DNA of 61,121 bases, filler included, from Rhabdomonas costata (taxonomy: Eukaryota), in NCBI GenBank assembly GCA_019059605.1. It is 20 parts of 20 records of this genome, joined end to end, with 100 filler letters (N's around TTAATTAATTAA, not from the genome) between each part and the next. Parts side by side here need not be neighbours in the genome. Positions count along the whole stretch, not along the records: positions 3,065 to 6,028 come from JAHMHO010001638.1; 19 more parts are not named here. One strand, written 5' to 3'. Below the pieces are notes generated by a model. It did not search any database and was not told the origin of the DNA. It worked only from the letters and a program-made list of their open reading frames with translations. Position numbers and translations under genes: made by a program. Positions 491-41,183 of the stretch are shown one piece after another; position 1 is the first letter of the stretch, and every line of letters starts with the position of its first letter.

Positions 491-2251
491 ATGCCCAAGT
501 GCCCGTGGTGCAGGGTGCAAGTCCACAGCATTGTCGAGAACCGGGGGCTGATACTAGTGCCGCAGGAGAATTCCCCCCGGGATCAGATCGCCCCGCCTCC
601 GCGGCTTCCCCTCACCGAGGAGCGCGCCCGGCGGCAGGTGGAGATGTTCCTGGAGAACCACTGCTCGCGCTTTGCCGAGGGCACTGGGGCGAGCGGCACG
701 GACTTTCCCGTTTTCGCCACGGAGATCCAGAAGGAGTTTGCGGATCTGGTGGACCAGCTGTGGACGGAGCACTGCTGCTTCGACATCCCCGTTCTGGGGC
801 GGGACCCCCAGGACCCCGACAAGCCCCACCCCGGGGAGGTCGCGTTGCTGGCTGTAGAGGCGAACCAGGGCACCCCAGAGGTCCTGGCGGCCGTTCAAGC
901 GGACCCTACTCTGAATTACCTGCGGACGTTGTTTGGGTTGATCGACTACCAGAAGAGGGAGGAAATTGTAGCGTTTGTTCGGCTGATGCGGAGCACCCAT
1001 GCCAGCCTGGCGTTCCAGGAGTTCCGAGTGCACGTGTTGTGGGACACGGAGAATATCCGGCTGGCCGACACGGGGGAGTTTCTGACCGCGCTGGAGCAGC
1101 TGTTTACCTTTCTAGAGAAACAGGGTATCGGCAGCCGGTACCGGTTTCGGCTGTGTGCGTTTTTCACCGGGGGGAAGCCCCAGGCCCCGAGCAAAAGGAT
1201 GCTGAAGTCGCTGCGCGACCTGGGTTTTGAGCTCCAGGAGTGTCCCGCGGCGAAGAAGGAGGAGGTGGACCGCCAGATCGAGCGTCGAATGAACATCATC
1301 GCGGATGACTGCGATCCCCGGAAGACGCGCGTGGTGGTGCTGTCCTCGGATAAGGACTTCATTGCGCCGATGCAGATGCTTCGGGGCCGGGGCTTCCTGA
1401 CTTACTTCATCCACGACGCCAAGCCCGGTTCCGTGCACACGAAGGCCCTGGCTGTTCACGCTGCGGGGACGTTTTCGATCCGGGAGGTTCTGGATCGCCG
1501 GCTGCTCCCTCAGCTGTGCGTGTGCCCGCGGTGCCCGGGGCAGAAGCTCACCCCAGGCGCCCGGTGCACGTTGTGCGTGCCGTGTCGGCAGTGCAAGAAT
1601 TTCGTCCCCCCCACCGCAATTGTGGGGATGTCGCAGACCTGCGAGACCTGCTGCAGCTCCTTGGGGGAGTGCCAAAAGTGCAGAAACCGGTTCTTCCCCT
1701 CCCTTCTGGTGAGAACTGCGGGCGCCCCGGGGGTGGCGGGGGGCTTTCTTTGTCGGAGCTGCAAATGCCTCACCGGCGGCTGCGACCGCCCTGCCGTTGC
1801 CAACGGCCACTGTGTAGCCCACCAGTCTACCGCACCCACCGGTGCAGCTCAACAGCCCCTGACCCTGACCCGGTCACTGACGCCGCCGGTTCCGCTTCAA
1901 CCCGTCCTTGTCTCCGAAAGCCCCCAAAGGCCCTCGCCTAGCGCCCTCCGTCGGCTGTCGGGCACTCCCCCGCCACAACGGGAAGTCTGCCGAGGACGCA
2001 TCCACCGGTGGGTGGCCGGGAAGGGGTTCGGCTTCGCACAGTTTGTTGGGGTCCCTGGTATGGTCTTCGTGCACATCCAGAACTTCGTGCTGCCTGCTCC
2101 CGGCGATGACACCCTGCTGCGCCAGCCCGGGATCCTGGCCGTTGCCCCGCAGCTGGTGAAGTCTGAGAAGGGGATCCGGATCGCCCCGAATGACCGCTGC
2201 CTCTCCATCACTGAGACGATGCGCACTCTCACGGGAGGCCGGTTAAGCTGA
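491..2251 (+). CDS. NYN (PIN-like, MARF1/LabA type) ribonuclease + Cys-rich zinc fingers + C-terminal cold-shock domain; single long exon
   Basis: NYN acidic motifs VLWDTENI, KEEVDRQI, VLSSDKDF..MQMLRGRGF; multiple CxxC pairs and CxxxxCx9CxxH; cold-shock motifs GKGFGFA and VFVHIQNF. ATG at 491 follows a pyrimidine tract and CAG, so an upstream exon or trans-splice is possible. Confidence 0.8.
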   Translation: MPKCPWCRVQVHSIVENRGLILVPQENSPRDQIAPPPRLPLTEERARRQVEMFLENHCSRFAEGTGASGTDFPVFATEIQKEFADLVDQLWTEHCCFDIPVLGRDPQDPDKPHPGEVALLAVEANQGTPEVLAAVQADPTLNYLRTLFGLIDYQKREEIVAFVRLMRSTHASLAFQEFRVHVLWDTENIRLADTGEFLTALEQLFTFLEKQGIGSRYRFRLCAFFTGGKPQAPSKRMLKSLRDLGFELQECPAAKKEEVDRQIERRMNIIADDCDPRKTRVVVLSSDKDFIAPMQMLRGRGFLTYFIHDAKPGSVHTKALAVHAAGTFSIREVLDRRLLPQLCVCPRCPGQKLTPGARCTLCVPCRQCKNFVPPTAIVGMSQTCETCCSSLGECQKCRNRFFPSLLVRTAGAPGVAGGFLCRSCKCLTGGCDRPAVANGHCVAHQSTAPTGAAQQPLTLTRSLTPPVPLQPVLVSESPQRPSPSALRRLSGTPPPQREVCRGRIHRWVAGKGFGFAQFVGVPGMVFVHIQNFVLPAPGDDTLLRQPGILAVAPQLVKSEKGIRIAPNDRCLSITETMRTLTGGRLS

Positions 2252-3463
2252 AGTTGTTCTTCTTTTTCAATTGCTGCTGCTGGTTTTGCCGCCCTTTCGT
2301 TCGTTTCCGCGGTTCTTGAGCGTTTTCACAGAAACACATCCGCGTACCCCTGTGTGCCTTGATTGATTGCTTGCTTGCTCGCTCGCCCTTTGCCTATTTT
2401 GGTGAGTACCACCTTTGGCCCCTCACCACCCCTCTCTCACTCTTTCCCTCTATCTGTGTGTTGCTTTCTCTTGCTTTCCTCGCAATTGGGATATGAATAC
2501 ATGCAATGGTGAAGGGTCACGACTCGGCACTTTGGCAGGATCACATGCTTCTGTATCGAGAAGATTTTCCTCGGGTTTTTTGACCGCCTCGTGCCCGTTC
2601 GGTCGGAACGGAGGCAGTAAACTTGCTCGTTTCGGACAGTTGGTGTCCTGCCACAATGGATGTTGGAGGAAGTGCTTGAAGTTTCCATGAAGGCTAGGAA
2701 AGACTTTTAAGACTTTTACTGGCTTTCTTCTCGGACTATAATAATGGCGAAATGCAAGATTAATTCCAAGAGAAAGGTGTTGCCCGCTCCGGAAAATGGG
2801 ATGTGCGGACTATCTAGGGACGTGGGAAGTCGCGAGTAGCGAGAAAAACAGTTTCGCTAATTTCCCCGAAGCAGAAGTTGAAAGACAACATTTTGCCTAG
2901 CGCGTTTTTGTTTGAACAGCGATAACTCCTGAAATTGCGTTCCGAAACGTTTTCCAACCAACAANNNNNNNNNNNNNNNNNNNNNNNNNNNNNNNNNNNN
3001 NNNNNNNNTTAATTAATTAANNNNNNNNNNNNNNNNNNNNNNNNNNNNNNNNNNNNNNNNNNNNGTGTTGGTGGTTTGGGTGGTGGGGTGGGGGATCCGG
3101 TAGTGCGCTGTGCTGTTGCGCTGCACCTGACCTGGCCGAACCTTCAAACTATAAAAACTATGAGAAGGTAGGATTTAATATTTGGATGTTTTATGGAGGT
3201 GCTGACATTTATGATGCCATTGAAGTGTGCATTGGCTAACAAATCAGAGTTTGTGCTAATTACTTTTTATTACTTTTTAATTGCAGGGGAGCGGTGTTCT
3301 TCTCCCCAATACAAGGAAGCACACCCAGAAGGAAACCCCTTCCCACCGGCACAGCACTCAACTCCACCTTCACAAGTCGTGATAATCACACAAGAGGGAT
3401 GCACGTCTTCACTGTACCGCGGGGTCATGCCCATATGTCGTTCTCCTTATACGCCTGTGGCAG

Positions 3464-5567
3464 GAAGCAAGGGGATTGCCGGGATTGGCTGTCACATCCT
3501 CACCCTTTGGATGCCTGACGCGGCGCAGCGCACCAGCCTGAAGATGACCCAGATGGGCGGCGAGGGGGCATCATGGGTCGGCGAGGCTCCCTTTAGCACC
3601 CGCCCCCACGTGTTCCAGGTTCACCCTCCACCTCCGCTCTCATTTCCTTGAAAACCAAAAAGGTATGTAGCCCAGGTTTTTCTTCCCTTTCTGCCCTTCG
3701 TTTTTCAGAATATGGGGGACGGCACATACTACCACTCCGGGCTGTTATCGATTCGTCACGCCATTGCTACGAACACTACCATGACCTTCAAGCTGCTGTA
3801 CAACCAACCCGTGGCTCTAACCGGTGAGCGCTGAGTTTATGTGTTGGGTGTTGAGAAATGTCAGTTGTTTGGTTGGACAGAAAGTTCAGATCCAAATCTA
3901 TGACATTTAATACACACACATAGTGCAAGCTCTCTCGACGACTGATTTGGTTTTTGGGAACAATGGACACTGGACATTCCTGTTGTGGTCGCGGTTTGCG
4001 AGCATTTTGATCCCAAATCTTGCGCCAAAAGCAGGTGCCTCCCCGATTTTCCAGAGCATGTCCCGGCACTAAAGGTTCTGGACTATTCCGCCCCGACGAA
4101 TCACGGTATTCTGGGCGGCCTGGCTGGTGATCAATCCCCCGAGCCTGCAGTGGCGTAAACACTTGTCCGCCAAACGACTCTGTTTCCCTTTTCTTCTGAC
4201 ATTTTCTTCCAACACACCTTCGCTTCACAGGGGGGCAGCCCGTGGATGGCCCGCTGAGCCTGTCGCAGCTGGCCCACCAAATTCACTCTGAGGGGGTGGC
4301 CAAGCTGGTTGTAGTCTCTGTGGACCCCAAGGCGCACAAGCACACGGCCTGGCCCCCCGGCACTGAGGTGCACGCATACCATGTTGCTCCTTCACGCTCG
4401 TGTTTCTGCTTCGCCCCGAGGCCAGTTCTGCTTTGAGATCTTGATGCCTTTCTCTTCGCACGTACATAACCCATCTCTGAAAATTCCTTATGGAGGGGAT
4501 AAACCCAAAGGGTGGGAGAGCGCAGTGGAAGACTTGAAGCGGGGTGCACGACAGGTTCCCTGGATGGAGGGATGGAGGACTGTCTAACCGGTTTCAGCGC
4601 TACATAAACATCCCAACAAAACGGGAAGTATAAATGCGGTCGTTGTGCTTTTGTTATTCGTTGCCATGGCTTTGTACGTGCTGCTTCGTCGAATTAGCGT
4701 ATGACATGTGTCCTCCGAGTCTCTCGAATCATAAAATGCATAGGTTTACGTTTTGTGGATGACTTACCAACCAGCTTGCGTTAAGGATCCGCGCAAACAT
4801 TGACCGAATATGTATACATGTATTTCTATTGCGGCCTCGATGGTTTGTGCCACTCGTCGTTCGCAGTTGTACCCCAGGGAGGACTTGGACTATGTGCAGA
4901 AGCAGCTGCGCGAGGTTCCTGGGGTGAGTGTGCTGATCTACGATCAGGCCTGCGCCACGGAGACCCGCCGCAAGCGCGTGCGGGGCTCCCTGCCCCCTGC
5001 CCCGGCGCGGGTGTTCATCAACCCTGCCGTGTGCGAGGGCTGCGGGGACTGCGGTAAGAAGTCGCTGTGCGCCGCGGTGGCCCCTGTGGAGACTGAGCTG
5101 GGGCGCAAGCGCCAGGTCAACCAGTCCATGTGCAATACCGACCTGTCCTGCGTCACAGGTGTGTTTGACCCTTCCCAGTAGCCATCCAAAGTTTCGGAAC
5201 AAGACTCCGGCTATTAAAGCGCGCCGAGGCAATGATGTCGTATGTAGCACATGGTGGACCCCACACAGGGGAAGACCTGGTTGGGTTGGGACCAGAGTCG
5301 CCTTCTTTGTTCATTGTGTAGCGCCGTTCACTCCATTCTCCCCCGGTTGTTGCAGGGTTCTGCCCCAGCTTTGTGACGATCCCCAATCTCCCGCTGCGTC
5401 GGGTCACCTGCGAGGGCCTAGAGGATGTTCTGGGGGACGGAGCTGAGTCACTTCCCGCCCCTCCTGCGCCTAGTCTTACCCGTCCCTTCGGCTTGGCTCT
5501 GGCTGGGGTGGGAGGCACTGGTGTCTTGACCGCTGCCGGGATCATCTGCATGGCAGCCCACCTGGAG
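3464..5567 (+). CDS. Indolepyruvate:ferredoxin oxidoreductase family, fused alpha-beta type, partial; exons 3464-3618, 3709-3823, 4231-4367, 4867-5158, 5356-5567
   Basis: Manual GT-AG splicing gives one continuous frame: GIGCH, QMGGEGASWVG, TPP-binding NMGDGTYYHSG..LYN, TGGQPVDG, ferredoxin CEGCGDC...CNTDLSCVTGFCPSF, then the beta-domain start GVGGTGV. Confidence 0.93.
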
Positions 5568-6128
5568 GTACGCTCACCTGTGAATTCCGGCTCACGCCAC
5601 ACGTGTCGCTTGCTGCCGTTCGGTATTGGCTTCAGACCTTTTTTCTTTTGACAGAATGCATCACAAATTCATTTTAATTGGAAGTGACTTTGTTTCATTC
5701 TGCTCCTCTTTTGCGTTAAGCAGCCTCGTTTGACACATAGGGCTATTGTGTCCTGAACCACGTGTTAATTTGCATAACCAGACACACACAACCATCCACC
5801 AATAACAAAGCACGTTCCCCAGATAAGCATTTGGGTCATATGCCGTGCAAGGCCATATTCCTTGACCCAGCTGTCAAGCTGTCGATGACAACAACAACAT
5901 CATGTCATCATGATGTGTGGATAAACAATCAGCAAGAATGATTTGGATCTGGTAACCACTTTCTTCAGTTTTCTAAGAACCAAGTCCCAACTGAGTTTTG
6001 CCTTCCTTGTGGTGGCTAACACACCCCCNNNNNNNNNNNNNNNNNNNNNNNNNNNNNNNNNNNNNNNNNNNNTTAATTAATTAANNNNNNNNNNNNNNNN
6101 NNNNNNNNNNNNNNNNNNNNNNNNNNNN

Positions 6129-9093
6129 AAGCGGCACTGTGTCACCTAGCCGCAGCACCACATCCACGCCAAGTAACTCCTGGACATCCTCTGCAAGCCT
6201 CAGCCCCACGCCGAGCACGTCCATATCTTGCAGCCCAACTACAACACCCTCTGCAAGCTTGAGTTCAACGGGCACGGATTCAGTAAGCAAGAGTTGGTCG
6301 CCGAGCCCCACTCCAAGTGCATCGATTAGCGTGTCTGCGAGCGGGAGCCCCTCGTGCAGCATCACCGTGTCATCCACATTCTCGTCCTCTTCCACGAGCT
6401 CGAGAAGCTCGAGCCTGTCCCTCTCGCCCAGTACGACCTTCACACCAAGTGCTACCGGGAGCCTTTCGCAGAGCCTGTCGAAGACATACAGCCAGTCAGG
6501 GAGCTTTAGCGGAAGCGTTTCTGTGACCCTTAGCCCATCCGGATCCCGATCCAGGTCCTTCACCAGGAGTGCCTCAGTTTCCCTGACTGCGTCCAGGTCG
6601 ATGTCGACCAGCTTTTCGCGGAGTGCTTCAGCTTCAGCAAGTGCCACGGGTTCCCATCCCTTGTCTGCGTCGCAGACCGAAACCTGCTCATCAAGCCTCT
6701 CCGCCACTTCCACCTTGAGTCCATCGGCATCGCAAACTCCGTCTTTGAGCGCCACGAGCACCAACTCCCCGACCTGCTCTTCCCGTTCCGTTTCACTAAC
6801 CCCATCGATCTCCTTTTCACCTTCTGAAAGTTCAAGTTCGAGCTTGTCTTGCTCGGCGAGTTTTTCTCGAAGCCTGACATGCTCGGTGACTGAAAGTTCT
6901 ACAGCTAGTTCTTCATGTAGCAGTAGTGTGACGCCTTCTGTTTCGAGCAGCTTGTCTCCGACCATTACGTTGTCTTTGTCCACTTCTGGGTCTGTGTCAT
7001 TATCACATTCTCCGTCTTCCACCCCAACGGAGAGTTCAGCCACGGTTTCTCCAAGCTTCTCCTTCTCGAACTCCCAAACCCCTTCGCTAACTCCCTCTGT
7101 CAGCACGAGTTTGACTTCCAGCTCGACCACCACGACCTCCCTTAGCGCTTCGGTCAGCTGCACAAGGACAGCTTCATTAACGTTGTCCATTCACAAAACT
7201 ATTACTGTCACTCGGACACCCACTGCCATAAAAACTCGCACCCTCTCGCCTTCTCTTTCCCTAACCGGAAGCGTCAGTTCGTCTCCATCTCCTACATTGA
7301 CGTCAAGCTCGTCTCAGACAAACTCTCCCACCACAACCGCTTCTGAAAGTGGGTCATTGACTTGCAGCTCCTCACCCTCAGCGTCACCAAGCTCAAGTCT
7401 CAGCTCATCCATCACTGGAAGTCCCTCAATGTCCCAATCCCGCTCTCCGTCGTTGACTTCCTCGGGAACACTGTCGGGTTCAGGCTCTCTCACGGCTTCT
7501 TCTCGTTCTCTCAGCTCTTCCGTATCATTTTCAAGGTCCTCCAGTAACACCCCATCCCTGACGTCCTCAGCGACAGGTTCTGGAACACCGTCAATGAGTA
7601 CTCGCACTGTATCATTGACAAAGTCATGTTCCAAGACGTTCTCTGCGACATCATCCTTCAGCACGACACCATCTGTATCCCGATCGGGATCCCCAAGCAC
7701 CTCCCTCTCTTTGTCGTCCACACTCTCACCTTCACCTTCCGCGAGCCTTTCCCCCACTCCTACAGCCACAGTGTCGTTCACAATGAGCTTCTCTGGCTCA
7801 CCGTCGTCAACCCTCTCTCCATCCCTTTCTGGATCCCTATCAGGTTCACCAAGCAGCTCTGCATCGGCCACCCTATCTTCATCGTTCTCAGGAAGCGGCA
7901 CGCCTTCATCCTCCCGGACTCCTTCCCGGTCACCATCCATGTCTCCTTCTGGCTCTTTTTCCTCCTTCACTGCTTCTCGCAGCGTTTCCTGCAGTGGTTC
8001 TATTACTCCCAGCCAGTCCGGTTCCCTCTCCCCTTCGATTTCTTCAACACAGACGTGCACAGCGACCATCACAAAGTCACTCACTCCTTCAATCACCCTT
8101 AGCGGCAGTTTATCTCCGTCATACTCCAAATCGCCAAGCCCTTCATTAACCCCTTCATCAAGTCAAACACTCACATCAACAGGCAGTCATTCGTTATCGT
8201 CAAGTACCACTCCTAGTTTTTCCTTGACCTCTTCCGTGTCACAGACAAGCTCATCCTCTTGGTCCGTGTCACGGTCTTTGAGTATCAGCTCATCTGTTTC
8301 CACCACGATGAGCGCAACCAACGCCCTCTCCCGCAGTTTTTCTCCGACTGGTACCACATCTTGTACATCGACACCTTCCCTCACCACAACCGGATCGGCA
8401 TCAATTTCTACAACGCAAAGCAATACGCTCTCCCCCACTATCAGCACTTCGCCAACACCCACGCCGACTATTAGCGCCAGTGTTTCTCCAACGCCAACAC
8501 TCACTCTTACAGCTACGCTCACGTTCTCGAAAAGCTCCTCTTTTCTTCCGACGCAAACACGATCTTCTTCGCGCTCACCTACGCAATCTCACTCCTCACT
8601 TTCGTTGACACCCTCCTCCTCTGGCTCGGCCACCGACAGTTTTTCATCTTTCTCACGATCGTTCAGCTTTAGTATATCTGTCTCTAATTCACCATCCGCC
8701 ACGGAGTCTGTGAGTCTCTCTCCTACTTTGCGGAAGTCGCATACATTCACGGTCACTTGGACTCCCCTCTCGACACCTTCGCTCTCCGCCACAGGTTCTT
8801 TAAGTGCATCGGCGACAGCGTCTTCATCACATACATGCAGCAGTTCTTGCACAGCTAGTTGCAGTTCTTCAAACTCACTCTCTGGAAGTTTTTCGTCGCC
8901 AACCTCTTCCCACAGTCTTTCTCATTCAAGAAGTGCCACGTTATCCTTCTCGGCCTCGTTATCACCCTCGTTATCAACCAGCAGAACCGCATCGTTCTCA
9001 TTATCCAGCCTGCGAACTCCCTCCGCCACTCCATCTCCCTCATCCTCCAGTTCGCGAAGCGATTCAGTCACCCCAACCCGAACGAATTCCCTT
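6129..9093 (+). CDS. Ser/Thr/Pro-rich mucin-like stalk of a large surface protein (internal fragment)
   Basis: Stop-free frame spans the whole contig (about 990 codons) with alternating S-x/T-x low-complexity sequence. Confidence 0.75.
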
Positions 9094-21170: not shown

Positions 21171-22567
21171 AAACCTGTGGGAGCGGGTCTCGACCCACGC
21201 AGTGAAGGAGTCTGAGCACCCCTTCATAGGCAGTACGTTGTCAGGCTCCGCCCAGGGCGCGCCAGAGCGCAGTTTCGGTGATTCCCCGCTGCGGTTGCGA
21301 AAGCAGATCTGCCCGGCCACTGCCGCAGCGGGGAATCACCAAAACCNNNNNNNNNNNNNNNNNNNNNNNNNNNNNNNNNNNNNNNNNNNNTTAATTAATT
21401 AANNNNNNNNNNNNNNNNNNNNNNNNNNNNNNNNNNNNNNNNNNNNTGAAAGGGAAGGAATTGGATATTGCATTTTACATTTTCGCCCCTCCTGTTTCAG
21501 CGATTTTGTTGTGTTACTGTCTGGCTGTGTGTGTGGTGGGTAGGAAAACTTCCGCTCGCCCCCCCCCCCAGGTTCCCTGTGGTGTCTGAGGAGCAGCAGC
21601 GGCTTTGGCTTGCTGAGCACAAGGCACAGCTTTCAGCCCAGCTGGCAGCACATGACGGCTCTTGGAAGGAACTGTTTCAGCTGTGAGGCGCCGATTTTTT
21701 GGCATTTTTCTGCTCGGACCCTTCCCTGCGAGGTGCTGCGGACCGCACTGCTGCAGTGTAACAACAGAGCATTCAGCTTTCCTGCGGCCGCTGAAACCTT
21801 CAGGGTCCTTGCGGGTGGACTGTGTTGATTGCCACCGCCGCCTGGGTGAGTTTTCAGCATATGCCGACGGAGTTCAGTTTGCCAGATAGGTCATCAGATT
21901 AGTTTAGTCCAGCAGCGGCCGCCCGTCATCGACCGAAGCGAGCATTGGGGCGGTGTTCCAGCGTTAACATGCTTTTGCACAGGAAGAGGGTCATGCGCCG
22001 CTTTCGTCAGCCCTGTTTTCCTTTTTGCCGTGATGACGAAGAAATCGATCTCAACTTAGTCAGTTCCCTATGGGGGGCGGGCTCAAATTCAAGCCCTCCC
22101 ATAAGGTCATCTGGCAACGAAAGCAAGCAAGATGCATGACTGTTAATCATTATTAAAGGTTTAGCGTCGTTGCACGTTAGCGGTGCCAGACGGTGAGCGA
22201 TTCCCCTCCCTCCAAAAAAAGCTTCAGCTGGTAACGAGCACGTTGGGGTTGATCTTGCGGCACAGGGCAAGTTCGGATTCACCCGATTTACAAGCAGGGG
22301 GCGAGCGGTAAAGAGCTCTATGTCTATTTTGGCGGTTTAGCGCTCAAACCAATCTGATTGCCCTGAAGGCCCAGGCCTCACGAAATGTTCATCTGGCGAT
22401 GAAGGCGAGCGGAAATTGTACAATAATTGTGCACAGAAGCAGTGTTAAACGTTAAGCACTGTGTATGCAAGTACGTAAGTTCTCAGTTCGGATGTACCCG
22501 ATTTACAAGCTGAAATTTTATTCCTAACTTCTCGTCGCAGCCTTTTCTCATCTTCTTCCCCTCAAAG

Positions 22568-23470
22568 ATGATGTCGTCCCTGTCCGAGAATACATTGTTA
22601 TGCAGCTTTCGGTTTCTGGGACAAAAACCACAACTTAGCCTGCGGCTGGTTTGCAAGCAGCTCCGAAGACTTGTTGATGAGAATCTCGCCCCGAATTGGA
22701 AGATTGTTCTCCGCCGCTCCCTCCCGTATAGTATCCGTGGTCAAAGTTTGGCTCAGAAGTTGCGGCTTGCGTGCTCTGCCGCGGTGATTTGCGTGCAAAA
22801 TACGAGGCTCTTGGAGCGTCTGCTTGGGACCGCAACCGAAATGGCTGCGCCGCCTGCATTGTTCTTGTTTCCCAACCTCACGTCTCTGGTAGTCCGAGAA
22901 ATCAATATCCGAATTGCGGGACTGCGTGCACTTGCCTCTTCCTCTTTCCTCACTAACCTTTCCTCCTTGGATGTCAGCGCTAATGAGATTGAGGCTGCGG
23001 GACTGGAAGCACTTGCCGCTTCCTCATTCTTCCCCAATCTGTCCTCCCTGTATGCAACGCACAATGTTATCGGAGATGCGGGAATCCGAGCATTTGCAGC
23101 TTCCTCTTTCTTTCCCAAACTTTCCTCCTTGAACGTAAGTTCCAATGCAATCGGAGATGCGGGATTGGAAGCACTTGCCTCTTCCTCTTTCTTCCCTAAC
23201 CTTTCCCAGTTGGATGTGAGCAGTAATAAGATCGGGGTTACGGGATTGCAAGGATTTGCATCTTCCTCTTTCTTCCGCAACCTTTCCTCCTTGTACGTGA
23301 GTAACAATGAGGTCGGAGATGCGGGAATCCAAGCACTTGCTGCTTCCTCATTCTTTCCCAACCTTTCCCAGTTGAATGCGAGGAACAACGCAATCGGAGT
23401 TGCGGGACTGGAAGCACTTTCCTCTTCCTCTTTCTTCCCCAACCTTTGCTCCTCGGAAATATGTGTTTAG
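22568..23470 (+). CDS. F-box-like N-terminus + RI-like 28-aa leucine-rich repeat protein, intronless
   Basis: N-terminal LRLVCKQLRRLV (F-box tail); about 7 repeats of FPNLSSLxVSxNxIGDAGLEALASSSF. Confidence 0.85.
   Translation: MMSSLSENTLLCSFRFLGQKPQLSLRLVCKQLRRLVDENLAPNWKIVLRRSLPYSIRGQSLAQKLRLACSAAVICVQNTRLLERLLGTATEMAAPPALFLFPNLTSLVVREINIRIAGLRALASSSFLTNLSSLDVSANEIEAAGLEALAASSFFPNLSSLYATHNVIGDAGIRAFAASSFFPKLSSLNVSSNAIGDAGLEALASSSFFPNLSQLDVSSNKIGVTGLQGFASSSFFRNLSSLYVSNNEVGDAGIQALAASSFFPNLSQLNARNNAIGVAGLEALSSSSFFPNLCSSEICV
22866..23447 (+). repeat. 84-bp tandem coding repeat (LRR units)
   Basis: Near-identical recurrences of ATCGGAGATGCGGGA..GCACTTGC..CTTCCTC..TTCTTCCCCAACCTTTCC at 84-bp spacing. 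Confidence 0.9.
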
Positions 23471-30161: not shown

Positions 30162-30978
30162 GTGTGTGCCTGTTCGGGTCTTTGAGTCACCTTCAATCAC
30201 CTTTAAAACCTCACCGCACCCTAATTCCACCGCCACCCCGTTTTTTCCGGTTCCTCCACCTTCATTTTCCGCTCATGTCCTCTTCCGTTTTCTGCCCGTG
30301 CTACTGTGCCTGCAACTCCTGGCACGCCGTCTTTTTCACTTTCCTCCCTCCTTTTTTTTTTTGCCTTTCTACCGCTGTTGTGGGTGGTGGACATGGGCCG
30401 CTGGACGTTGACCCATGTGGGGTCGTGCCAAAACTGTGTGACGCTACGCCACGGCAAGTATATTATCCCTTTTTTTGCTCTCGCAGGTCTCTGTGACCTC
30501 TGTGGTTGAGGGGCAAAGTCGAGCCACCACAACCNNNNNNNNNNNNNNNNNNNNNNNNNNNNNNNNNNNNNNNNNNNNTTAATTAATTAANNNNNNNNNN
30601 NNNNNNNNNNNNNNNNNNNNNNNNNNNNNNNNNNGGTGGTGTGGCAGACCACCTCTGCAACGACCTCGCAGTCTGTAGACTTTCTGGCCGGGCGAGTCTT
30701 TGACGTGGTGGAACTTCAGCTCGCCGCGCGGGTGTGCCATCGCAATAGGGACGAAGAGTGTTTTGCAGACCCCATTTGTCTGACGGAAACGGCACGTTAG
30801 TGTTGCGTATCGTCCATTACCATTTCGTGCAAGCCGTTGCACTATTGTTTACCTTGGTAAAATGCCTCCCAGCTGGCACTACGATATTGTTATCCGGTGA
30901 GTGTTTTACTGCCGTTCCTGCTGCGACTGGGGCCGCGGCGGCTTGCTTTGGTTTCCCTTCCTCGTTGTGCGCACTCAG

Positions 30979-32016
30979 GTCGATGTGCTGACCCGTGAGA
31001 TGGCCGCTGTCTCCCAAATGGGTGCCGCAGCTGTCCTGATGGACTCTTCCGTGACCAGCCTGCAGAGCTATTTCTACCATGTCCTTGCCTCAATCAAGGA
31101 CCCGTTTGTTGTTGGGTACTCTTCGACCCATGGCCTGCACGTCGAAGCGATGCGGCTTCCAAGTGGGGAGTTGCAGGTCGCGCTCCGTGATCCCGAGCAG
31201 GCCAATGTGACTGAGCCCGAGCTGCTGTACTGGGCAGTCAACTCCCAGCTGCAGAAGCTGGCCCTCGCCTCCACCACCCCATACAACCCTTTGGTGCGGC
31301 CCTGGTACACCGCCGTCTCTTCGCAAAACTACACTCCGGCCTTCTCCGATATCTACAAGCACATCGTGCTAAACAACACACTGATCACTCTAGGGGTCCC
31401 CGTGCGCTCGGCCAACGGCTCTGTAATGGGGGTCTTTGCAGTGGGATATGACCTGAGCACTCTGCAGGAGGCCATTCAGTCGGCCCACCAAGCCCTTCGC
31501 ACCTCGGGGATGCTTCTTCTTCTCACACAAAACGGCAGCCTGATTGCGAGCTCCGTTCCAAGCGAGGCGCCTGAGGTTCTGACGACAATTCGCTCGCTGT
31601 CGCTGCTCCGCGAGGCTGTTCCCGGGGATGTTGTTGAGGCCACGGTTGCCCCGTATGGGTCGTGTTTTGTGCTGCAGATGATCATTTCTGGGCAGGTCCG
31701 ACCTGACTTCTATGCCCACGGGCTGAACTGGAGGCTATATGTGGTTCTTCCCCAGTCGGACTACAAGGCCGGCGTGTGGAAGAACAATCGCCTTGCCGTC
31801 ATCCTCGTGGCCGTGTGCTGCGTGACCTTCTTCGTGGTGCAGCTGTTCTTCTACCGAATCATCCTGGTGTTCCACCTGCGGACGTTGCTGGATGGGCTTG
31901 TGCGGCTCCGGGGGGCCGTGGAGTGCTCCATTGGCTTGAGTGAAAGCAGTGTGGTGGACATCGAGTCGATTCCGGCGAGCACATCGGTGTTCAGGGAGAT
32001 TCGTGTCTTGCATCAG
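30979..32016 (+). CDS. dCache-domain transmembrane receptor exon (sensor + TM + degenerate HAMP-like segment)
   Basis: YNPLVRPWY, FSDIY, ITLGVPV..GSVMGVFAVGYDL, LNWRLYVVLPQSDY, hydrophobic helix LAVILVAVCCVTFFVVQLFFY; CAG/GT borders. Confidence 0.8.
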
Positions 32017-32442
32017 GTTGCTTTCTATGCATCTGCAATGATGAAAGCAATTGGGTTTCAGACGCACCAGTTTGGGTTTTCTCCATTTGTATCAAGGATC
32101 CCATGTCGCAGATTTCCACGATCATTTGAAAAGCAGGAGAACACTTTTGCTAGATGTGGATCCTCTATCGCTTACTGGCTTTTCAGGGATTAGTTTTTGT
32201 TGTTGCAGGGTTTCTGCTTGTTACGTTTTTGTCCGAATTCCCCTCCTTTCCGCTGGATCTCTCATAAGACCATCTGTCAGGAGGTCAGGGTTGTGTGCAT
32301 CCCTCTGCGAGCTGCAGCAGAAAAGTGAAAAATGTATCGCTTTCCTGTTTAGTGCAGTTCCGGTGTGCGTTTCGCTCATTGTGCCTCGTTGTTGAGATGT
32401 GAGACACTACCGTAGGGACATGCGACCATCAAGCGTCAGGGG

Positions 32443-39928: not shown

Positions 39929-41183
39929 CCTGAGCTCCCACTTGGATCACTTGGGATGCACTGATGTGGTCTCGATGTTCCTGGGATCGCTTCTGGGTGT
40001 CTCCGCGCCGTACACCATTCACGACATGGCGCTGGACGCGGCGGCGCTTCTGGACCACCTTGGCGTGCCGCAGGCCCACCTATGCGGGTTCAGCATGGGA
40101 GGGCTGATCGTGCAGCAGATGGCGGTCAGCTTCCCGGAGCGTGTGCTGTCACTGACCACGGTGTCGTCGCCGGCAGGTCTGAGCGGGACCTCGCTTCGTG
40201 GAACGATAGCTGTGCTTCAGCTGAGCTCGCAGGACCCCGACGATGACATCCAGCGTACGGTGAATGTGGTGAAGAGCGTATCCACTCGGAAGTACTTTGA
40301 TGAGCAGGAGTACGTACGTTTTTATGTTTCCGAAATTAAATGAATTGGTTGCCGAGCGGTTTTCTTCTGTTTGGGATGGGGATGCCTCCCAGTTCTTGTG
40401 AAATTCAAGGTTTGGGTTAGCAGAAAAGGCGATCTACAGATTGCCCACTTCTCAAGCTGGCCGGGATTTTGCGATTCTTGCCGGTGAGACCTGTTGCAAC
40501 CAAAATTGGCGTCAAAAAAGTGTGTGCACTGTTGTTTGCCCTTTTCATTTCGTAGATGCGAAGCCTGCGTGCGGGAGGTCGTCGCTCGCTCTCCATACAT
40601 CGGAGGGGTGCCCCGCCAGCTGGCCGCCATCCTGGCCACGGGCTATGGGGTCCCTGATGTCCACACCGTGCGGGCCCCGACGATGGTCTTCCACGGCACG
40701 GAGGATCCCATCGTCCCCCCGGAGTCCGGGAAAGTCCTGGCGAGCGCCATCTCCGGGGCGCGGCTGTTCATGCTGAAGGACGGGGCCCACGATCTTCCCC
40801 CGGAGATCGATGAGATTCTGATCGACGGGCTGAAGGAGAACGCCGGGATCGTGGACCAGCGCCTGCCTGAGCACTACGCTGGGTACGAGGCGGAGGGCCG
40901 CTCGGAGCCCTACAATCATGACGAGTATGATCAGCACTACGACAGTTACGCGCGGGAGAACGACGATGTGTCGTCTTCGGCGCAGTACTCTGCAGAAAAT
41001 TGGTCGTTTGACTCCCACCCTCTGTCCGCCTCGACACCTTCCGATTTCTCTGCCTCTGCCTTATCCTCCGATGGTGATTATGGCTATCCCCCTCAGGAGG
41101 ATGCCTACGCTTCAGGCTGGGCACTGCGGTCTTCGGACGAGTCCTACCCTCCTGAGTATGCCGGGCGCGTGATCTCTGCGTGA
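39929..41183 (+). CDS. Alpha/beta hydrolase (bacterial-like esterase), 3' part; exons 39929-40309, 40556-41183
   Basis: PYTIHDMALDAAALLDHLG, nucleophile GFSMGG, HGTEDPIV, GAHDLP; acidic low-complexity tail. Confidence 0.9.

Follow-up and report, generated by a model that had tools for sequence, protein, structure and literature searches.

What is a bacterial-type indolepyruvate:ferredoxin oxidoreductase (IOR) doing in the assembly of a eukaryote, and is it a gene of that eukaryote at all? The question is raised by positions 3464 to 5567 of a stretch of DNA assigned to Rhabdomonas costata (GCA_019059605.1), which is 61,121 nucleotides long, filler included, and which is called here the window. 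An earlier reading, made from the sequence alone and referred to below as the sequence-only reading, had seen in this locus a fused bacterial IOR domesticated with introns, acquired by lateral transfer and serving a flagellate at low oxygen. We conclude, with a probability of about 0.78, that the locus is a fragment of a genuine nuclear gene whose eukaryotic owner is probably a euglenid-like flagellate, and that this gene is of bacterial long IOR descent, has gained at least six introns, has taken on a host-like composition and is under purifying selection.

A long IOR gene divided by introns

The coding pieces were recognized with the NCBIfam model NF009589 ("indolepyruvate ferredoxin oxidoreductase family protein", 1170 positions) and with a profile of our own, built from 30 of 85 full-length bacterial matches (1159 positions) and run without filters on the 2423 stop-to-stop open reading frames (ORFs) of at least 12 residues in the whole window. 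With our own profile, only five exon pieces score (E 2.9e-10 to 2.1e-57), the other three rows having E > 6. The same five pieces lie in order and abut on NF009589 (E 9.4e-09 to 1.2e-46; Table 1), so that nothing has been lost or added at the joins. Joined by coordinates, the exons amount to 911 bases and encode 303 residues in 909 coding bases with neither stop nor frameshift, and this splice product aligns to our profile without a break (447-745 of 1159, 461.6 bits), the four junctions being free of insertions and deletions. The scores of the single pieces on NF009589 (33.5-159 bits) are those of a fragment, the whole-protein cut-offs of NF009589 and NF009588 being 816 and 952 bits. Five exons on the + strand had been proposed from the sequence alone, and their start and end coordinates are borne out by the profile matches and by the splice product.

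The spacers have the hallmarks of spliceosomal introns of the U2-type (GT-AG). Indeed, all four complete introns carry GT at the 5' end and a pyrimidine-rich tract followed by AG at the 3' end, AG precedes GT at four of the five exon ends, and removal of the spacers at these borders restores the frame and the homology exactly. Their G+C content ranges from 0.47 to 0.54, versus ~0.645 in the exons. Introns 2 and 4, both in phase 1, each split a glycine codon, and bacteria have glycine at the same places. Intron 1, whose 90 nt are a multiple of three, is not readable through because the frame closes at 3651. A scan of the window with Rfam gave 0 matches, neither to a group II intron nor to any other RNA family, and the spacers are thus not group II introns. 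With the four complete introns, the acceptor at 3463 and the donor at 5568, at least six introns interrupt 0.9 kb of coding sequence. The earlier argument that four complete introns set this locus apart from plain bacterial contamination therefore stands, since the GT..AG spacers restore both frame and profile match.

Table 1. Features of the IOR-bearing contig, with positions counted along the window and, for the exons, the match to NF009589
Feature	Positions	Strand	Length	Description	NF009589 positions	E value	Bits
IOR-bearing contig	3065-6028		2964 bp	second contig of the window; artificial N/TTAATTAATTAA linkers on both sides			
Cut upstream intron	3065-3463	+		pyrimidine-rich tract, CAG at 3461-3463			
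Exon A	3464-3618	+		first two bases complete a codon; GIGCH, QMGGEG; ends ...HVFQ	458-502	3.5e-14	51.5
Intron 1	3619-3708	+	90 nt	GTTCAC...TTTTTCAG; phase 0; in-frame stop			
Exon B	3709-3823	+		thiamine pyrophosphate-binding motif NMGDGTYYHSG ... LLYN	503-540	3.8e-15	54.7
Intron 2	3824-4230	+	407 nt	GTGAGC...CTTCACAG; phase 1; splits a Gly codon			
Exon C	4231-4367	+		end of the thiamine pyrophosphate domain, GQPVDG...	542-586	9.4e-09	33.5
Intron 3	4368-4866	+	499 nt	GTGCAC...GTTCGCAG; phase 0			
Exon D	4867-5158	+		YDQAC; cysteine-rich ferredoxin-like stretch CEGCGDCGKKSLC (CEGCGDCG...); CNTDLSC	589-682	1.2e-46	159
Intron 4	5159-5355	+	197 nt	GTGTGT...GTTGCAG; phase 1; splits a Gly codon			
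Exon E	5356-5567	+		FCPSFV; variable linker; GVGGTGV, start of the beta-like (POR) domain	685-755	9.9e-15	53.3
Cut downstream intron	5568-6028	+		donor GTACGC; runs to the contig end			

The motifs of the family are found in one polypeptide, as the sequence-only reading had it: the thiamine pyrophosphate (TPP) signature GDGTYYHSG...LLYN, the cysteine-rich ferredoxin-like stretch, which continues from exon D into the FCPSF of exon E, and the GVGGTGV of the beta-like domain are all present. The TPP-binding GDG...N motif of exon B is aligned to invariant bacterial columns, and the conserved cysteines of the visible stretch are all in place (GIGC, YDQxC, CxxCxxCx5C and Cx5Cx4CP); by analogy with the superfamily, these cysteines would hold Fe-S clusters. 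Exon D matches the end of the IOR alpha-subunit model TIGR03336 (IOR_alpha, positions 512-586 of 595, E 3.1e-4) and, under the Pfam cut-off, Fer4_10 (E 3.4e-4). Exon E matches positions 702-771 of NF009588 (E 1e-16), and its residues 44-68 weakly match positions 3-31 of IOR beta-subunit models (E 0.011-0.24). As exon E alone spans an alpha-like end and a beta-like start, the alpha/beta fusion is real independently of the splice prediction, and the assignment to the long, fused IOR type is thereby upheld.

Pfam annotates two full-length bacterial homologues with TPP_enzyme_C at ~450-610, POR at ~725-917 and DUF6537 at ~935-1145. What is visible on the contig is accordingly the TPP domain, the cysteine-rich insert and the opening residues of POR, ~303 of ~1160 residues (~26%), and downstream of 5568 to the contig end no further exon scores with our own profile. 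Upstream of exon A, 3287-3353 (+) was considered as an exon carrying FCSGCPH. It lies at roughly the right distance, where bacteria read FCSGCPHNTST, and has a strong acceptor (T-rich tract and CAG); it was rejected, as it reads PLPTGTALNSTFT, without either cysteine, and gives no profile score. It is either a chance resemblance or a degenerate exon.

Bacterial relatives and the origin of the gene

Relatives were searched in several collections, among them a set of 5.8 billion proteins that includes EukProt; the identities to exon D given here rest on the best-ranked matches of each search. In the 5.8-billion set, the top identity to exon D was 72% among longer proteins (best 120 of 3138 relatives) and 69% among proteins of near length (39 relatives). 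It reached 68% with one genome per prokaryote species (best 80 of 489 relatives), 69% in metagenome contigs (best 80 of 377) and 69% in an exhaustive HMMER search of 1.84 billion representatives (best 150 of 1263). No eukaryotic copy ranks above the bacteria among the matches listed, the database with EukProt included, and since that set includes EukProt, a close eukaryotic copy there should have ranked first. A broad distribution among eukaryotes, which the sequence-only reading had named as evidence that would speak against it, was thus not encountered among these matches. With exon D, the ESM Atlas returned only bacterial or archaeal clusters. Among the best 80 of 489 genome loci, the closest named relatives belong to Caulobacter, Burkholderia, Paraburkholderia, Pseudomonas, Actinomadura, Nocardia and similar genera. 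Short proteins encoded on long contigs (P0001, P0017, P0008, P0023, P0032, P0085 and others) were considered as eukaryotic exon calls and discarded as frameshifted bacterial genes, and so were P0176, P0179, P0231, P0160 and P0164.

Quick maximum-likelihood trees were built with 113 rows or with 60 rows hand-picked to span clades. In the 113-row tree, the end branch of the gene fragment measures 1.67 changes per column, by far the longest (median 0.13), and in the 60-row tree 1.39 (median 0.27). The fragment sits in an open polytomy in the former, split from an Actinomycetota clade with a support of 99. In the latter it stands loosely beside the alphaproteobacterial row P0018 and a betaproteobacterial clade (SH-aLRT support 91, not starred). 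When the fragment was constrained to group with a clade of Actinomycetota plus one Acidobacteriota row, the approximately unbiased (AU) test did not reject this placement (p-AU 0.666), which lies 10.35 log-likelihood units above the free quick tree. As the test does not reject the Actinomycetota placement, no proteobacterial donor is claimed, and the claim stops at a bacterial long-IOR type. Long-branch effects are likely in the placement of the fragment.

The distribution, with thousands of bacterial relatives and no eukaryotic one ranked higher, argues for lateral transfer from bacteria. The transfer proposed from the sequence alone hence keeps its backing from distribution, while the AU test singles out no donor. 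An alternative route is inheritance from the mitochondrial ancestor, that is an endosymbiotic transfer retained in one lineage only. The long IOR is given as the commonest 2-oxoacid:ferredoxin oxidoreductase of alphaproteobacteria in one review (PMC10411912), and the tree placement is open, with the alphaproteobacterial P0018 standing loosely beside the fragment among the 60 rows. However, Actinomycetota fit at least as well as neighbours, many independent losses would be needed, and the matches listed, EukProt included, hold no eukaryotic copy above the bacteria. We regard such an inheritance as very improbable.

Conservation and selection

The splice product was aligned with 112 bacterial rows, namely 77 of the 80 named genome loci (three have no ORF spanning the region) and the first 35 full-length database matches, and 299 columns were kept. 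Where bacteria are invariant, the gene fragment keeps the residue in 57 of 58 columns. At columns conserved to at least 95% it keeps 82 of 87, the bacterial rows themselves keeping 81-87, and the five changes are A to G, A to S, M to L, K to V and I to V. At columns with a consensus below 60%, only 29 of 114 are kept. The fragment is 46-57% identical to the bacterial proteins (mean 52%), and bacteria average 60% among themselves (500 random pairs). This pattern, with fixed sites kept and free sites changed, points to purifying selection over the visible quarter of the protein and not to a decaying pseudogene.

These numbers also bear on the possibility of a dead or dying relic, i.e., a transferred gene now unexpressed or truncated, of which the contig would hold a still-readable piece. 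Such a fate would suit the end branch of 1.39-1.67 changes per column, as well as the failure to find the cysteine-pair exon on the contig, where the look-alike at 3287-3353 is devoid of cysteines. Nevertheless, 909 coding bases over five exons are free of stops and frameshifts, the splice borders are all intact, and neutral decay at such a divergence would not leave 57 of 58 invariant columns in place next to 29 of 114 variable ones. A relic is therefore clearly unlikely in our view, and a gene under selection accounts better for what is seen.

The contig, its composition and the host

The window consists of 20 contigs of 2954-2965 bp, nearly in descending order of length, separated by 19 linkers of ~100 bases made of N with TTAATTAATTAA in the middle and evenly spaced (pattern count). 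The contigs are unrelated and come from a fragmented assembly, and genes adjacent in the window are not neighbours. What flanks 3065-6028 thus belongs to other contigs and says nothing on the gene neighbourhood.

Contig ends have a composition of their own. At least 11 of the first 12 bases are G or T in 8 of the 20 contigs and at least 11 of the last 12 are A or C in 11 of the 20, when all-G/T 12-mers make up only 0.36% of interior 12-mers. The IOR contig itself begins with ~30 nt of G/T only (3065-3094) and ends with ~11 nt of A/C only (6018-6028). Such tails resemble what we take to be degenerate-primer leftovers of whole-genome amplification. The G/T start of the IOR contig may be primer-derived, and contig ends in general may not be genomic.

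On the first contig, a complete ORF without introns encodes 586 residues at positions 491-2248 (+), and the protein carries an NYN domain and cysteine-rich repeats. Its single relative in the 5.8-billion protein set is EP00906_Rhabdomonas_costata_P037459 (EukProt; 53% identity, 99% query coverage), which points as far as a euglenid-like euglenozoan and not to the species, and a search of the ESM Atlas with the NYN-domain protein gave no usable match. The exons of the IOR gene have a G+C content of 0.646 and a third-position G+C content (GC3) of 0.79, versus 0.645 and 0.80 in the NYN-domain ORF. Their relative synonymous codon usage correlates at 0.81 with the pooled ORFs of the other contigs and at 0.71 with the bacterial homologues. 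This composition fits a long residence in the host; high-GC bacteria are not very different. Regarding the host, the flagellate put forward by the sequence-only reading is plausible in view of the Rhabdomonas costata relative of the NYN ORF, which lies on another contig of the same assembly and is not proof.

Could the contig be foreign, either bacterial DNA mis-assembled with spacers or DNA of another eukaryote such as a prey, a symbiont or a contaminant? The assembly is fragmented, the G/T and A/C tails suggest amplification of little input DNA, and no physical link to a host gene exists, as the neighbours are all separate contigs. A bacterial origin of the contig is however excluded by the four GT..AG spacers, which restore the frame exactly and include no group II intron. 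Moreover, composition and codon use agree with those of the other contigs, and nothing near-identical occurs in bacterial genomes or metagenomes among the matches listed. An identity of 46-57% together with the long end branch also shows that the gene is not a recent contaminant. With the bacterial form excluded, a different eukaryotic source is what may be left, and foreign DNA as a whole is a very unlikely explanation.

Several points nevertheless weigh against our conclusion that the locus is part of a nuclear gene of a euglenid-like flagellate. Its link to the NYN contig with the euglenid relative consists of a shared assembly and a similar composition only, and that assembly is fragmented and seems to derive from amplified DNA. 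No more than about one quarter of the gene can be seen. The N-terminal ~450 residues (1-450 in the bacterial homologues, with the pyrimidine-binding domains) and the C-terminal ~400 (about 745-1150, with the rest of POR and DUF6537) lie off the contig, either elsewhere in the genome or lost, and the scan with our own profile finds no scoring exon with the FCSGCPH cysteine pair on the contig. Remoter eukaryotic copies could exist below the listed ranks. The direction of transfer is drawn from distribution and not from a resolved tree, and a relaxation of constraint might also account for the great length of the branch.

The other contigs of the window supplied further observations. Positions 6129-9093 (+) form a contig that is entirely one open frame, rich in Ser and Thr; long acidic ORFs are present on the opposite strand too, probably as a by-product. 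The ORF at 30901-32193 (+) is receptor-like, with a dCache sensor domain (E 5.7e-10, under the Pfam cut-off) followed by a hydrophobic stretch, and at 22565-23467 (+) an F-box precedes LRR_6 repeats (SSFFPNLSxL type). An alpha/beta-hydrolase is encoded in two frames (39930-40340 and 40488-41180, +), which implies one intron or more between them. The GTACGT..TAG pair at 40314-40555, tried there as an intron for comparison, fails to bring the two pieces into one frame, and the actual borders were not located. A motif resembling the euglenid spliced leader had 0 matches, a result of little weight in a window of 61 kb.

Comparison with known 2-oxoacid oxidoreductases

Compared with the bacterial long IOR (NF009589 / NF009588, ~1150-1200 residues, TPP_enzyme_C + POR + DUF6537), the gene of the R. 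costata assembly has the same motif order over positions 458-755 and shares with it the TPP motif, every cysteine of the visible stretch and the alpha/beta joint. It differs by at least six spliceosomal introns, by eukaryote-like DNA surroundings and by its divergence, being 46-57% identical with a branch about 5-13 times the median. A single-sequence search for a solved structure of a long IOR gave 0 matches, and a profile search of structures gave one, the PFOR gamma subunit (9bt4_E, E 1.8e-06).

The two-subunit IorA/IorB of archaea and anaerobic bacteria (TIGR03336, TIGR03334) belong to the same superfamily and share its chemistry. Exon D aligns to the C-terminus of IorA and exon E, weakly, to the start of IorB; these are separate subunits there and one polypeptide here, fused in exon E. 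The two-subunit models reach E values of 3.1e-4 to 0.24 only, versus 1e-46 for the long form.

The eukaryotic pyruvate:ferredoxin oxidoreductase (PFO) and pyruvate:NADP+ oxidoreductase (PNO), the other enzymes of this kind known in eukaryotes, are likewise bacterial-type 2-oxoacid:ferredoxin oxidoreductases, according to two reviews (PMC13768988, PMC10411912). They form another family with a different domain order, and PFOR-type models of NCBIfam or Pfam match none of the exons at E up to 1. In the passages concerned, PFOR is named for eukaryotes in both reviews (PMC13768988, PMC10411912) and OGOR in one, which speaks of anaerobic eukaryotes (PMC10411912), and IOR is not named there.

Proposed function and the question of low oxygen

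The following course of events may be proposed. The ancestor of the gene was probably a "long" IOR of bacteria, with alpha and beta fused, and spliceosomal introns and a host-like base composition were probably acquired after transfer. In the superfamily mechanism, TPP attacks the 2-oxoacid, CO2 leaves and the acyl group passes to coenzyme A (CoA), with two electrons exiting singly through [4Fe-4S] clusters to ferredoxin (PMC13768988). By analogy, the protein would bind TPP at its GDG...N motif and decarboxylate a 2-oxoacid oxidatively with CoA, yielding acyl-CoA and CO2, and a low-potential ferredoxin or flavodoxin would receive the two electrons by way of [4Fe-4S] clusters at the conserved cysteines. 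Regarding the substrate of the bacterial long form, arylpyruvate or branched-chain, no paper was found in the literature searched. One pathway-annotation resource reportedly assigns branched-chain 2-oxoacids to such a fused enzyme.

The sequence-only reading had gone further and assigned to the gene a low-oxygen catabolism of aromatic or branched-chain amino acids; in such a role, reduced ferredoxin would feed an anaerobic pathway. The chemistry of the family is ferredoxin-linked, and two-subunit IORs act in anaerobic amino-acid fermentation, as stated in one report (PMC13285125). The nearest named relatives among the loci listed, in contrast, come from aerobic heterotrophs, and the literature searched on anaerobic protist organelles yielded no mention of indolepyruvate. 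Caulobacter, Burkholderia, Paraburkholderia, Pseudomonas, Actinomadura, Nocardia and the like are known as aerobic heterotrophs. On the side of the host, euglenids include facultative anaerobes with pyruvate:NADP+ oxidoreductase, and such a euglenid enzyme was reportedly described by Rotte et al. in 2001. Since the closest named relatives are aerobic, the presence of the family alone does not imply anaerobiosis, and the presence of the gene is by itself no evidence of an anaerobic pathway. The low-oxygen role is thus not supported, and we hold it to be possible, if doubtful.

A more speculative proposal would make of this protein a second ferredoxin-linked 2-oxoacid oxidoreductase of a euglenid-like flagellate, belonging to a family as yet unreported in eukaryotes, an old bacterial acquisition, heavily intronised and under selection. 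From aryl- or branched-chain 2-oxoacids it would make reduced ferredoxin and acyl-CoA starters, perhaps in mitochondria under hypoxia. A bolder form would see in it a relic of the long IOR of the mitochondrial ancestor. We consider this proposal rather unlikely.

Significance and perspectives

The literature searched, supplements and subscription journals aside, contained no description of a eukaryotic long IOR. In our reading, an enzyme family already known from bacteria has become naturalised in a eukaryote, by a route that is itself ordinary, and this overturns nothing at present. As yet, nothing about anaerobiosis in the host organism follows from it. An intron-bearing, selected long-IOR gene would nevertheless add a family to the eukaryotic list that two reviews give as PFOR/PNO and OGOR (PMC13768988, PMC10411912). 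It would be a clean example of a fully naturalised bacterial gene, 0.9 kb of its coding sequence being divided by about six introns. Finally, the bacterial long form is poorly characterised, and a eukaryotic copy could prompt biochemical work on this family.

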